37,520 nucleotides of DNA. Source: a virus (lineage: Duplodnaviria; Heunggongvirae; Uroviricota; Caudoviricetes). The translations under genes were made by a program, and so were the position numbers. Location of the stretch: the IMG/VR virus record IMGVR_UViG_2541047896_000017; one strand, given 5' to 3'. Under the pieces are notes generated by a model. That model had not been told where the DNA came from, ran no database searches, and saw only the letters and a list, made by a program, of their open reading frames with translations. This document shows, piece after piece, positions 32,295 to 36,928 of this stretch (positions are counted from its first letter, which is position 1; every line of letters begins with the position of its first letter).

Positions 32295-32416
32295 TCACCG
32301 ATTGGCCAAGTGTAACCCGCCTTACACCAAGACGAATTATAATCGGCAACAATGTCAGTAGTTACTATAAATGTTTATAAACAAAGATTTATTTCTCCGA
32401 AGCTACAAGCACTACA

Positions 32417-33010
32417 CTAAATCTCAGCAATCTTTTTTTTACTGTGCTGTTCTATTATCAACTCTGCTTCCGCTTGGTATTCATGAGCTAACTCTCGAAG
32501 AATTCGGGCAAATCGATGAAAGCCTAGAAGTTCCATTGCATCAGACTTAGTGTGATATTGTTGGGCCAACTCCAATTCCGGTTTACCTTCTGGGTCAACA
32601 ATGTAGACACCACGCGAATTTATTATCGCATTCTTATAACCAGTACGCACTTTATCAAGTTCACGTCTATTCAAAAACTCGGCCAGTTCTGGAAGTATCC
32701 AATGCTCGTCATTTGCAGGGCTAAAAATTAATATGCTTCCAATCCTATGATAAGCAAAATCTAAATGGCCTGACTTTTCGCATTCTGTTTGGACAAAATC
32801 AAACCAGTTATTAAACGCATTGACATCAAACTTGCCTTCAGCATCAACACCCGGAATCTTTTTCCAATCATCAAGTAAATAGAGTGAGTTTTTGGCAATA
32901 TTTATTTCACTTTCAGATAGTTCTTTACTTGCTTTTTGAAATTCTGATCGATACGCATATTGAATGACTTCACAAAAAAAACTGGGTTCACTTGCAAGTT
33001 TTTTCTCTAA
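32417..33010 (-). pseudogene. C-terminal fragment (about 197 codons) of the IS5-disrupted large cargo gene
   Basis: Frame open from the IS5 junction to stop at 32417 with no plausible start codon; in frame with the 34206..36408 part once IS5 and one CTAA copy are removed. Confidence 0.75.
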
Positions 33011-34205
33011 GGAAGGTGCGAATAAGCGGGGAAATTCTTCTCGGCTGACTCAGTCATTTCATTTCTTCATGTTTGAGCCGATTTTTTCTCCCGTAAATGC
33101 CTTGAATCAGCCTATTTAGACCGTTTCTTCGCCATTTAAGGCGTTATCCCCAGTTTTTAGTGAGATCTCTCCCACTGACGTATCATTTGGTCCACCCGAA
33201 ACAGGTTGGCCAGGGTGAATAACATCGCCAGTTGGTTATCGTTTTTCAGCAGCCCCTTGTATCTGGCTTTCACGAAGCCGAACTGCCGCTTGATGATGCG
33301 AAACGGGTGCTCTACCTTGGCACGGATGCTGGCTTTCATGTATTCGATGTTGATGGCCGTTTTGTTCTTGCGCGGATGCTGCTTCAAGGTTTTTACCTTG
33401 CCGGGACGCTCGGCGATCAGCCAGTCCACATCCACCTCGGCCAGCTCCTCGCGCTGTGGCGCTCCTTGGTAGCCGGCATCGGCTGAGACAAATTGCTCCT
33501 CTCCATGAAGCAGATTACCCAGCTGATTGAGGTCATGCTCGTTGGCCGCGGTGGTGACTAGGCTGTGGGTCAGGCCACTCTTGGCATCGACACCAATGTG
33601 GGCCTTCATGCCAAAGTGCCACTGATTGCCTTTCTTGGTCTGATGCATCTCCGGATCGCGTTGCTGCTCTTTGTTCTTGGTAGAGCTGGGTGCCTCAATG
33701 ATGGTGGCATCCACCAAAGTGCCTTGGGTCATCATGACGCCTGCTTCGGCCAGCCAGCGATTGATGGTCTTGAACAATTGACGGGCCAGTTGATGCTGCT
33801 CGAGCAGGTGGCGGAAATTCATGATGGTGGTGCGATCCGGCAGGGCGCTATCCAGGGATAATCGGGCAAACAGGCGCATGGAGGCGATTTCGTACAGGGC
33901 ATCTTCCATGGCACCGTCGCTCAGGTTGTACCAATGCTGCATGCAGTGAATACGCAGCATGGTCTCCAGCGGATAGGGCCGTCGGCCATTGCCCGCCTTG
34001 GGATAAAACGGCTCGATGACAGCGGTCATATTCTGCCATGGCAGAATCTGCTCCATGCGGGAGAGGAAAATCTCTTTTCGGGTCTGACGGCGCTTAGTGC
34101 TGAATTCACTATCGGCGAAGGTGAGTTGATGGCTCATGATGTCCCTCTGGGATGCGCTCCGGATGAATATGATGATCTCATATCAGGAACTTGTTCGCAC
34201 CTTCC
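33011..34205 (-). mobile_element. IS5 insertion sequence (1195 bp) with 4-bp CTAA target-site duplication
   Basis: Terminal inverted repeats GGAAGGTGCGAATAAG (33011-33026) and complement of GGAAGGTGCGAACAAG (34190-34205); CTAA at 33007-33010 and 34206-34209. Confidence 0.9.
33157..34137 (-). CDS. insH: IS5 transposase
   Basis: 326 aa beginning [34 protein letters not shown], as recalled for IS5 InsH. Confidence 0.9.
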
Positions 34206-36408
34206 CTAATACTTGAGGATGCAACGAATCATTAGCCCCCCTGTTAATTACAGGTAGGTATGCCCATTCAATCTTTACTAAGTCGTCATCTGAAACAGTG
34301 TTATCATTTTGAATATAATTCACAAGTTCATTAAATGAGTGAATATCAAACCGCTCAATATTTTCTGTGGTTCTAATTGATTGCAATAGAGCAAGCACAA
34401 CCTTACTGCTATCAACTGAATTATCGATATGCAAAATTTTAGATAAACAATCTATTGCCATCAAGGGACGGTCTACTTTAATCAAGCAGTCTATAGCAAA
34501 ATAAATTTCTTCCGTTGAATCACAGCTGTATGCATTAACAAGAGTATTTTTCCAATACTCGAAAGGAAAATCATCAAATGAAGCGTTTAATGCATCCCAT
34601 GTTTCTTTTTTAAACGGTAACAAAAGAAAAAAAGCAATCTTTTCTTGAGCACTCCAGTCATTAATAACTGTCAACACCCATGATTTTCCTTCTCTGTAGT
34701 TTTTAGCCTGTACATAACCAGAAGCAAGAGAATTTTCCTTTTTAATATCACTAACAATAAGTTTTTTCAGTATATCTAAAGGAATTTCTAGATCTTCTGC
34801 GACCAGGCTACTACCAACAAACTCAGGCCTTTCAATAGATAGAGAGAATTCTAAGACTCCATCAATACCATTAATAGCATATATTTCGCATATTGATTGC
34901 CCTCGTTCTTTTGTCAACCTTTCTTCTTGGTCCCGCCAGTTTCCATTTTCATCAAATAGGAAGTAATTGTTTTGTGCAAAAAGTCGCTTGCTATAAAGCA
35001 TAGGATCTTCGGGCTTCAAGACTGTAGAAACATCTTTGATTTTTTCATTTTGTTCTGGTTGCATTGCCCAATAAGCACCTGAGAATCTTTTGTTTTTGTT
35101 ATAAACTTCTAAACATTTTTCCCACACCGCTAACTTCAATTCAGCACTATCTGTTTTTTTAGAAAAATCATACAATAGTTTAATTGCATCATCGAATTTA
35201 AATGGCGCTAAACTACCAATATTTTCAACTAAATCAACAAGTCTTAATGATGATTTACTTGCCAATTCAATTGTTAATTGAGTGTATATTTCAATCTGAG
35301 TACGGCACTCATCACCCGATGGCCTTTTATTAAAACCGTTAGGAATAAAGTTTCTAAAAGTTGGAATATGTGTGCCAGATGTTACTTGCGTGTTGTTGGG
35401 TAGCAACTGAACTAAAACACGCCATGCTGTATCGGGCCACTCCCTTGCCAATGCGTTGAAAGCAGCAATACGTCTATCTATATCAGCTGTAGTATGAGGA
35501 AGCCATGGTAACAATATGTTGATTATCGAGTTAAGTGGCCTGTTAGCCCAATTGCCACCAGGATCATGGCTATCCAGCTCCCCTAATATTACTAAAGAGC
35601 GAGATAAATAGTTAGGCGCCCAAGCTAATCCTTCAATAGCCCATAGCAGTCCTGTCATATAATTCCGACCTGAAATTCCACCGATACCTTCCTGTGCAAA
35701 AAGTGAATCAAATGGCTTGTCTTGGTGAGATGCAGCATTTTCCACTTCGTCGATAAAACAGTCAGGAGCACTTTCCGCAAGCATAACTTGAATATCTTGC
35801 GTACTAGCCCATAATTGCCAGCTAGAAGCCGAAAAAACCTCTTTAACCACACTTGAGGCGCAATATTGCCCTTTATATTTTGAGCAATTAGTAAGTAACT
35901 CTTGCTTTGTTGCAACTAATGCCAACCCTTCGGATAGTCCTTTCCTTATTAATCGGCTGTGTGGTAAAACCTTCCCATAAATTACTGCTGCATAACGCTC
36001 TTCAGGTGCCAGTTCAAATTGTGGGTCGATAGTTTTAAAAACGGATACAACAGTCGTCCGAAACAAATCCAAATGATCATCGAATAATCTTGACGATACC
36101 GTTTGAAATGTTTGTATTCTATCTTTAAAACTCCAAGAACCTCTCTCATGAATCAAAGGACTATCTTGCATCCCTTCAATTATTCTTAATTTTCGAATCC
36201 AACTGTCATATGACTCACCAATAAGGCTTGTAATTATATCAATATCACCATTATTTTTTTCATCCCAGCAACCGACTAAAACAGCAATCGCTAACTCAGT
36301 CGCATAATCAACATTATCACTATTGTATACAATTAAGTTACCAGCAACATTATGGCCTGGTCCGGTATGATTTTGACTAATTGAACTGCAGCTATGAATG
36401 TTATCCAT
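34206..36408 (-). pseudogene. N-terminal part (about 735 codons) of large AT-rich cargo gene, truncated by IS5
   Basis: ORF-track 743 aa ORF whose last 7 codons plus stop come from IS5; start ATG 36408 (RBS gagg) or GTG 36414. Confidence 0.75.
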
Positions 36409-36413
36409 AGACA

Positions 36414-36776
36414 CTACCTCGTAATTTTATTTCCACCAATATTATCACCAGTGCCACTATGGTTTTGAATAATGACAGTTGCTGCATGAGGTTTTATAGA
36501 CGAGAGTATTTTTTGAATTTCACTACTATCCAATAGTTTTCTTTCAATTGCTATTTCACTCATTTCATCGTTCAAAGACAGTTTTTCAAGCTCTTTAGCT
36601 AAAGCAGGGGCTACAGCCTCATCAACAACCCAATTTTTTAACTTTTCTTTTATTGAAGTTGCAGTAATCGAAACATGATGTTTAAGCATGTCATAAACTA
36701 TGCCAGAAAGTATCGCCGAAGATAAAAAATCCATAACAATTTCCTTTAACGTAAGATATTTACTATCCAGATACAT
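36414..36776 (-). CDS. Small protein (120 aa) tightly coupled upstream of the large cargo gene; unknown function
   Basis: Stop TAG overlaps/abuts the large gene start; AT-rich; C-terminal QNHSGTGDNIGGN motif. Confidence 0.6.
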   Translation of the reverse strand: MYLDSKYLTLKEIVMDFLSSAILSGIVYDMLKHHVSITATSIKEKLKNWVVDEAVAPALAKELEKLSLNDEMSEIAIERKLLDSSEIQKILSSIKPHAATVIIQNHSGTGDNIGGNKITR

Positions 36777-36928
36777 TTTAAATCGAAGAAAGAGCTTTTA
36801 CCACGTATATTTATTGGCTAATAACATGATAACTCGACTATCTGCTATTCGCTTAAAACGAAGTGTTAGTTGGAATTATAGCCAGCACGACCTAGAATAA
36901 CATCAGCACTGCGTTAAGGGAGGTCGCT

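Follow-up and report, generated by a model that had tools for sequence, protein, structure and literature searches.

A probable Bab-type amyloid-signalling module with a new sensor, carried as IS5-interrupted cargo of a P2-like prophage

Introduction

Bab is the pore-forming effector of Bab/Agp (GAPS6), an abortive-infection system of Escherichia coli ECOR25, and the preprint on this system (Ibarlosa et al., bioRxiv 10.1101/2024.11.07.622273) presents experimental demonstrations of both the templating of an amyloid motif, BASS11, and damage to the membrane. It describes how, after T5 infection, the motif assembles in an Agp-dependent manner, Bab moves to the cell periphery, the membrane is damaged and the infection is aborted, and how the substitutions G11K and N100P in Bab and N12P in Agp abolish activity. 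The four systems newly reported from Vibrio GMT islands include GAPS6, whose first gene encodes GapS6a (Mahata et al., bioRxiv 10.1101/2023.03.28.534373); GAPS6 lowered the plating of coliphages in E. coli, and the partner protein, GapS6b, has TPR and PINc domains. Here we consider a two-gene operon in the virus record IMGVR_UViG_2541047896_000017, a P2-like prophage of 37,520 nucleotides (the window, by which we mean this whole stretch of DNA). Its small gene encodes a protein of the GapS6a/Bab family, referred to below as the effector, and its large gene, interrupted by an insertion sequence (IS), encodes a 930-residue protein apparently unrelated to Agp, for which we propose the role of sensor. 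A first-pass annotation made from the sequence had pointed to this operon as a candidate undescribed accessory or defence system.

Results

The small protein belongs to the GapS6a/Bab family

By its sequence matches, the 106-residue small protein is a clear member of the GapS6a/Bab (Pfam HetE-N) family. It matches Pfam PF20701 with E = 1.7e-38 and the NCBIfam model NF047935 (antiphage_GapS6a) with 135.5 bits, where the cutoff is 90, and RefSeq names an identical protein gapS6a. Comparison by phmmer with PDB entry 9H9V, the crystal structure of Bab called 'Babybass', gave E = 6e-18 over residues 1-83 with G11 conserved, so that the protein has the Babybell effector domain and the conserved N-terminal helix expected of a Bab/Agp-type effector. 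Its tail, TVIIQNHSGTGDNIGGNKI, has the same core as that of Bab, VTQNHSGSGDNIIGNKNIY, including the D-N pair: D97/N98 of the effector align with D99/N100 of Bab. The first-pass annotation had found neither protein to resemble a nameable family, a statement that applies to the large protein, which matches no named family, and not to the small one. It had also given the small gene 120 codons. This is indeed the longest reading of the frame, and the conserved start at ATG 36734 gives 106. Because the latter has an AAGGA Shine-Dalgarno sequence, all homologues begin with MDFLS or MEFLS and the RefSeq protein has 106 residues, translation almost certainly begins there and the upstream ATG is probably unused.

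The effector tail and the N-terminus of the large protein share a co-varying motif

The most informative feature of the operon, which escaped the first-pass annotation, is a motif that stands both at the C-terminus of the effector and at the N-terminus of the adjacent large protein. When the last 28 residues of the effector were aligned with the first 34 of the sensor, the alignment score was 63; shuffled tails scored 20.8 +/- 4.6, and none out of 5000 reached 63. The critical D-N positions in the one protein and the N position in the other are present, as in a Bab/Agp-type pair. An alignment of 26 sensors with short N-termini has just three invariant positions up to residue 40, namely M1, G18 and N20, of which N20 aligns with N12 of Agp. 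The residues hit by the inactivating mutations of Bab (D99A, N100P) and Agp (N12P) are thus all kept here, as D97/N98 and N20.

Across divergent pairs the two copies of the motif vary together. In a matrix of scores, the proteins of these divergent pairs reached their best scores with their own partners, and the sequence ...GVGDNIGRDK occurs in both effector and sensor at one metagenomic locus (L021), QTHSGTG-N-GRD in both proteins at another (L022). At two further loci, one in Vibrio cyclitrophicus (L020) and one on a metagenome scaffold (L026), the upstream gene encodes not a Babybell protein but an unrelated 64-residue single-pass membrane protein. The tail of this protein, QKVGNNSSANQFGDNANVTI (Q.VG.NSSA.QFGDNANVTI), mirrors a different sensor N-terminus, QSQNVGDNSTALQVGDNAQITL or QNVGDNSTALQVGDNAQITL. 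By their sequences, these two loci look like a second, undescribed type of motif and effector acting on the same receptor. The same sensor subgroup also includes a protein of Moritella viscosa (P0036).

HetE-N proteins adjoin either the solenoid protein described below or a PIN-TPR-GreABC protein. Taken with the 64-residue partner, this means that one effector family is found with two unrelated receptors and one receptor family with two unrelated effectors, and in the sequences of each combination a matching terminal motif links effector and receptor.

The large protein is a predicted alpha-solenoid that matches no named family

An AlphaFold2 model of the sensor, built with 115 homologues, is confident, with a predicted local distance difference test (pLDDT) score of 88.4, and shows an all-alpha solenoid with residues 1-22, where most of the motif lies, disordered. 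On this model, the protein is predicted to be a HEAT/ARM-like alpha-solenoid of ~880 residues that carries neither an NTPase nor another catalytic signature. No match in Pfam, NCBIfam or PADLOC was found even at E<=1, and no sequence relative in the PDB; the protein has no Walker A motif and hence no P-loop, as the first-pass annotation had already judged by eye.

We considered several described receptors as identities for this protein. It is not Agp/GapS6b, as it matches neither NF047936 nor PF20698, whereas an Agp-like protein of Yersinia scores 1100 bits. BLASTP between the sensor and the Agp-like protein aligned a single segment, residues 10-24 of the sensor (ISQNHTGTGHNVAGN) with residues 2-16 of the Agp-like protein (VNQVHNGAGDNVAGH). 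Nor does it have the TPR-GreA/B-C-PIN (TGP) receptor architecture. A STAND NTPase receptor with a NACHT or NB-ARC domain does not fit a protein with no Walker A motif, no Pfam match and an all-alpha model. DSR1/DSR2, Avs and other catalogued single-chain sensors do not fit either, PADLOC being silent on the window protein and on the cores of its relatives; the only PADLOC match among these relatives is that of a fused SIR2 domain (P0097) to the models for SIR2 associated with pAgo. The receptor is not described, as far as we could find, in Pfam (2025), PADLOC (2023), NCBIfam (June 2026), the PDB (2026) or the searchable literature.

The two genes form a conserved pair in several kinds of mobile element

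Direct inspection showed effector and sensor genes side by side at 18 places: in the window, in four E. coli genomes that have the operon without the IS, and at 13 loci from other bacteria, among them Citrobacter (L002), Proteus (L028/29), Aeromonas (L027), Vibrio (L020) and the metagenomic loci L021, L022, L026 and L032. Eight more pairs, including those of Photobacterium and Sessilibacter, are inferred from contigs of matching length. Intact copies in different genera share 44-83% identity. The co-occurrence of the small and large genes, which the first-pass annotation had put forward as a check, is therefore that of a conserved pair. Besides phages, where at two loci (L021 and L032) the pair follows tail tape-measure genes, the pair lies in a Tn7-like transposon (L022), on plasmids and in an island that is bounded by an integrase and encodes the restriction enzymes Mrr and PvuRts1I-like (L028/29). 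Among the phage genomes of INPHARED, there was no relative of the large protein.

The V. cyclitrophicus pair (L020 7031-10420) directly adjoins pheT-pheS, and an E. coli P2-like prophage with the operon (L001 12331-16020) is integrated beside ihfA-pheT-pheS. The recurrence of the pheT-pheS neighbourhood in two genera may be a coincidence or reflect a shared integration hotspot.

Relatives of the sensor carry exchangeable N-terminal domains

A profile built from the 930-residue forms and searched against 1.84 billion representatives retrieved 6040 clusters (at 50% identity) with E<=1e-3 and 3230 with E<=1e-30, from Proteobacteria, Planctomycetota, Firmicutes, Spirochaetes, Chloroflexi and others. 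In a survey of the N-termini of ~270 retrieved members, the core was constant and the N-terminus variable, with the short motif present in ~45. Most common among the 183 members with an N-terminal extension of at least 60 residues was an unannotated domain of ~290 residues (SNPFSTGGGGxxFE...), found in 127, and another domain without annotation, of ~370 residues, was found in 32 members. The remaining N-termini are SIR2_2, TIR_2, PNP_UDP_1, Schlafen AlbA_2, GT4-conflict, FRG, Abi_C, DUF4062 and Metallophos domains, the fused SIR2_2 being very near to pAgo-associated SIR2 (PADLOC, 6e-122). Because suicide effectors are swapped on a constant module, we regard the core as an immune sensor. The TIR and SIR2 effectors of other systems need induced oligomerisation, as does an amyloid motif if it is to nucleate.

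Some individual relatives deserve mention. One with a fused PNP_UDP_1 domain (P0214, and L007 3242-4100) keeps a BASS-like stretch (GDVNGGNIAGRDIIIHQ) between effector and core, which hints that fused and in-trans arrangements have interconverted in evolution; a frameshift or stop divides the PNP domain of L007. Two others (L011 282-3510 and P0223) have an N-terminal domain of ~180 residues with no Pfam match and an RN(K/S)LYH motif (Rx4H, HEPN-like), parted from the core by a frameshift in L011. On two plasmids (L030 152-4264 and L031 1136-5200), relatives of ~1350-1370 residues with a ~25%-identical core are annotated 'HTH transcriptional regulator' or 'HigA family antitoxin', and have an N-terminal DNA-binding domain in the effector's place.

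The operon is acquired cargo at a P2-like accessory site

Among the genes of the P2-like prophage that makes up the window are those for integrase, gpA, portal, terminase and tail proteins, along with gpD and ogr. Between gpD and ogr, the last two genes of the window, lie 4.7 kb in which every gene is on the minus strand (Table 1). As the first-pass annotation had described, this insert is AT-rich and convergent to D: without the IS, it has 36.5% GC compared to 53.0% in positions 1-32200 of the window, and the IS has 53.6%. The cargo, which is horizontally acquired, is 3.4 kb of 36.5% GC DNA flanked by gpD and ogr, as expected at a P2-like accessory (cargo) site.

The effector gene comes first and the sensor gene second. 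The effector's TAG ends at 36414 and the sensor's ATG, with GAGG upstream, is at 36408, leaving a gap of 5 nucleotides between the genes, which do not overlap. An imperfect 39-nucleotide hairpin is a candidate bidirectional terminator, a function inferred from its position and fold; a simple terminator scan did not flag it. Similarly, a perfect TATAAT hexamer, with a weak -35 (ATGTTA), is a candidate for the -10 box of the operon's promoter, one that a promoter consensus scan did not call.

Table 1. Positions of the operon, its flanking genes, the insertion sequence and related features (window coordinates unless a locus is named)
Feature	Position	Strand	Remarks
gpD	30965/31106..32206	+	Pfam Phage_GPD
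Imperfect 39-nt hairpin (GGCACAGAGCAAA...TTTGCTTCTGTGCC)	32254..32292		Between convergent gpD and sensor genes; RNA fold of 32207-32420 and sequence
Sensor gene, 3' fragment	32417..33006	-	Last 2 nt of codon 735, codons 736-930, stop
Target-site duplication CTAA (+ strand)	33007..33010 and 34206-34209		4 bp each
IS5 (ISKpn26-like), 1195 bp	33011..34205	-	Same orientation as operon; 16-bp terminal inverted repeats
IS5 transposase open reading frame, 326 aa	33157..34137	-	
Sensor gene, 5' fragment	34206..36408	-	Codons 1-734 and 1 nt; holds second CTAA copy
Sensor N-terminal BASS11-like motif, residues 10-27 (ISQNHTGPGHNVAGNLIV)	36328..36381	-	
Effector gene, 106 aa and stop	36414..36734	-	GapS6a/Bab 'Babybell' (Pfam HetE-N) family; longest open reading frame to 36776 = 120 aa
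Effector C-terminal BASS11-like motif, residues 86-104 (TVIIQNHSGTGDNIGGNKI)	36423..36479	-	
Effector N-terminal hydrophobic helix (MDFLSSAILSGIVYDMLK)	36681..36734	-	Includes G11; alignment to Bab, hydropathy
Perfect TATAAT hexamer	36875..36880	-	140 nt upstream of effector start; read from sequence
ogr	36929..37189	+	Pfam Ogr_Delta
64-aa transmembrane partner genes	L020 3835-4029; L026 2335-2529		

IS5 has interrupted the sensor gene in this copy

In size (~1.2 kb), in its 16-bp inverted repeats (GGAAGGTGCGAA(T/C)AAG) and in its DDE transposase, the IS agrees with IS5, as it does in having duplicated 4 bp of its target. Matching copies, thousands of them near-identical, are labelled IS5-like ISKpn26 family transposase in RefSeq. 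Once IS5 and one copy of CTAA are removed, by joining 36408..34206 to 33006..32417, an uninterrupted open reading frame of 930 codons is restored, just as the first-pass annotation had predicted (~930 residues), and the IS is seen to lie within codon 735. The 5' fragment reads into the end of the IS (…PQVLGKVRTSS*), giving a predicted truncated product of ~741 residues. This product would be without the last 196 residues of the sensor, a region dense in positions invariant in the family, including F744, F745, C746, E747, W782, W802, R866, E878, R899 and Y911. The system is probably non-functional in this genome, with the effector gene intact.

The IS-free homologues that had been asked for exist: seven complete E. 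coli genomes have the operon without the IS at 99.6-99.9% identity. In all four of those inspected (H1, H3, H5 and H7), it occupies the D/ogr site of a prophage adjoining hok-ihfA-pheT. The operon is rare in E. coli, these seven being all that were found among 5426 complete genomes, none of which has the IS-bearing allele. The IS aside, the window sensor differs from the IS-free copy of E. coli DLI.5a (operon at NZ_CP103972.1 497024-500142) at a single residue, T17P, and we take the inactivation to be recent for this reason. The T17P difference (window 36358-36360, minus strand) falls inside the amyloid-type motif, changing HTGTGHN to HTGPGHN; other natural homologues of the sensor also have P at this position (NHSGPGHNIARD).

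Damaged copies of either gene occur elsewhere too. Effector proteins from other assemblies (P0146 and P0155) are cut short at '...SSEIQKYSRL*' and have lost the amyloid tail, and deletion of one A from an A6 run (window 36497-36502, in 'attcaaaaaatactc') yields exactly this ending; these truncations could be sequencing errors or recurrent inactivation. In a Neisseriaceae locus (L012 4001-6208), a 72%-identical sensor begins at residue 191 with unrelated sequence ahead of it, and this copy is decayed.

Other accessory genes of the prophage

The classical P2 accessory hotspot between gpA and portal (window 7756-9685) encodes an actin-like segregation ATPase (ParM/StbA) together with a ParR-like protein (Plasmid_stab_B) and one that resembles Ead/Ea22. 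What this P2-like prophage has there is a partition module of the kind known from plasmids, and PADLOC gave no defence match. On the minus strand at 24630-25193, a hexapeptide-repeat acetyltransferase occupies a patch of 42% GC beside the tail-fibre genes and may be surface-modification or serotype-conversion cargo. The related E. coli prophage L001 has a recombinase-family gene in the same stretch, where it is flanked by two tail genes and lies shortly upstream of the tape-measure gene.

Discussion

We propose that the observations made here, on the family of the effector, on the motif that both proteins share and that varies jointly in them, on the conserved pairing, on the sensor's class of fold, on the swapping of effectors among its relatives and on the IS disruption, are best explained by a two-gene Bab-type amyloid-signalling abortive-infection module with a new sensor, carried as cargo of a P2-like prophage and inactivated in this copy by IS5; we would put the probability of this reading at roughly 0.6. 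The effector would be a small helical bundle that hides its N-terminal hydrophobic helix and ends in a ~20-residue BASS11-type amyloid-forming tail. A phage cue might cause the solenoid to self-associate, the N-terminal motifs thereby clustered would nucleate a cross-beta fold, and this fold would template the effector tail. The effector would then release its N-terminal helix into the inner membrane, with death of the infected cell ahead of phage release. All six of these steps, amyloid templating, membrane attack and abortive infection included, are drawn by analogy with Bab/Agp and HET-S/NWD2. With IS5 having removed the most conserved C-terminal fifth of the sensor, the system would most likely be switched off here, the effector gene being left intact. 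The suggestion of the first-pass annotation that the cargo is anti-phage gains from the conserved pairing, the horizontal acquisition and the effector family, all of which point to defence, with the qualification that the small protein is of a family already known. In the same way, 'undescribed' is a fair description of the 930-residue partner and of the pairing, and not of the small protein, for homologues of which a role in phage defence has been shown by experiment.

Several points weigh against this reading. The role of the 930-residue protein as a sensor is argued from its architecture, with no match in PADLOC, Pfam, NCBIfam or the PDB to lean on, and neither an oligomerisation module nor a trigger-binding site was identified in it. 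The support for the sensor and for the pairing comes from sequence and models. The window sensor has P at motif position 17, and prolines elsewhere in BASS11 inactivate Bab/Agp. The distant relatives bearing HTH domains are annotated as regulators, so the core may not be exclusively immune, and the operon is rare among complete E. coli genomes.

The same pairing and motif-sharing data would also fit if the large protein bound and restrained a small membrane toxin, with the motif acting as a heterotypic interaction tag and release of the toxin causing death. The amyloid nature of this variant of the motif is argued by analogy, and the insertion of IS5 in the sensor gene left the effector gene intact without obvious counter-selection. 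However, if the sensor were an antitoxin, one would expect its loss to be toxic, and the window still has an intact effector gene free of mutations; moreover, the motif is the BASS11 core (QNHSG.GDN..GN), for which the Bab/Agp preprint presents fibrils, beta-strands by solid-state NMR, prion-like foci and loss of function with beta-breakers. We consider restraint of a toxin an unlikely account of the pair. One might also regard the operon as a dead remnant, a mildly deleterious cargo that is being lost, considering that IS5 in codon 735 removes 196 conserved residues, that effector variants in other assemblies are truncated to '...SEIQKYSRL' as from a -1 frameshift in the A6 run, that the Neisseriaceae copy of the sensor is truncated and that E. 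coli seldom carries the operon. This concerns the state of the window copy, though, and not the nature of the system; the single residue separating it, IS aside, from intact copies speaks for recent inactivation, and intact copies have been kept across genera at the identities given above. As an explanation of the operon itself, we think decay improbable.

Rather than defending the host cell, the large protein could benefit the phage, whether as a regulator, as an anti-defence protein or as a factor that excludes superinfecting phages by a different route, with the small protein a lysis or holin-like accessory. The location inside a prophage beside late genes, the N-terminal hydrophobic helix of the small protein and the annotation of HTH-fused relatives as regulators are all consistent with such a role. 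Against it, the pair is not confined to phages but occurs on plasmids, within a Tn7-like element and in a chromosomal island that also encodes Mrr and PvuRts1I-like enzymes, the large protein has no relative in the INPHARED phage genomes, the N-terminal domains fused to its relatives are classic suicide effectors (SIR2, TIR, PNP) and the small protein is homologous to Bab and not to holins. A phage-benefit role therefore seems to us very improbable, and we keep to the Bab-type abortive-infection module.

Beyond this locus, we consider a broader scenario, tentatively and at somewhat less than even odds. The solenoid might be the sensing module of a large, unnamed, NTPase-free immune-receptor family of bacteria (at least 3230 clusters at 50% identity) that signals either through a fused N-terminal domain (SIR2, TIR, PNP, Schlafen or nuclease-like) or through a ~20-residue amyloid motif recruiting a separate membrane-killer. 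Amyloid templating would then be a portable plug and socket, exchanged by unrelated sensors (Agp, the solenoid) and effectors (Babybell, the 64-residue transmembrane peptide).

Amyloid signalling in bacterial immunity has been demonstrated only lately, with a single receptor type, Agp; here the same effector and motif appear wired to an unrelated, NTPase-free receptor, and the idea of the motif as a portable connector is testable in E. coli with natural intact alleles. The receptor family is very large and nameless in Pfam, NCBIfam and PADLOC, and its domain swaps mark it as immune. There is a practical consequence as well, in that annotation pipelines name the small gene gapS6a and leave its partner hypothetical, and rules that require both proteins of GAPS6 would miss such systems.

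How, then, does the window pair compare with the described systems? Like Bab/Agp, it has a homologous Babybell effector of the same length class, with the N-terminal helix, G11 and the C-terminal BASS11 core, and the N-terminus of the product of the adjacent downstream gene bears this core as well; the genes run small then large, nearly abutting, and the location is a prophage or defence island. Unlike Agp, the window receptor has no PF20698/GapS6b match, PIN or GreAB-C domain, being an alpha-solenoid of an unnamed family, and the tail of the window effector does not have the extra upstream 'NIGSVT' strand of Bab. The window pair is known from its sequence and a structure model alone, in contrast to Bab/Agp. 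DSR1/DSR2 (SIR2-helical-repeat) and Avs are single-chain modular sensors with swappable N-terminal effectors. Relatives of the window sensor resemble them in that a large helical sensor forms the C-terminal part and an effector (SIR2, TIR, nuclease-like or another) the N-terminal part; the differences are that there is no PADLOC match and no NTPase, and that in the window the effector is supplied in trans via a short motif. With GAPS6, the operon shares a first gene of the GapS6a family, above the curated NCBIfam cutoff, the two-gene arrangement and the association with mobile elements, whereas GapS6b, with its TPR and PINc domains, is absent from the window locus. Because the authors' rule needs both proteins (bioRxiv 10.1101/2023.03.28.534373), we do not count the locus as GAPS6. 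The fungal HET-S/NWD2 and bacterial Bell/BASS-NLR pairs (Dyrka et al., bioRxiv 10.1101/2020.01.06.895854) likewise combine a membrane-targeting helical effector bearing a C-terminal amyloid motif with the same motif at the N-terminus of an adjacent receptor; those receptors, however, are STAND NTPases (NACHT or NB-ARC) with repeat sensors, and the window receptor has no NTPase module. On the best reading, then, the pair would be, in function and anatomy and by analogy, a Bab/Agp-like abortive-infection pair of the BASS11 type, and by membership neither GAPS6, Bab/Agp nor Bell/BASS-NLR: judged by their sequences, the effector and the connector are known, and what is new is the receptor.

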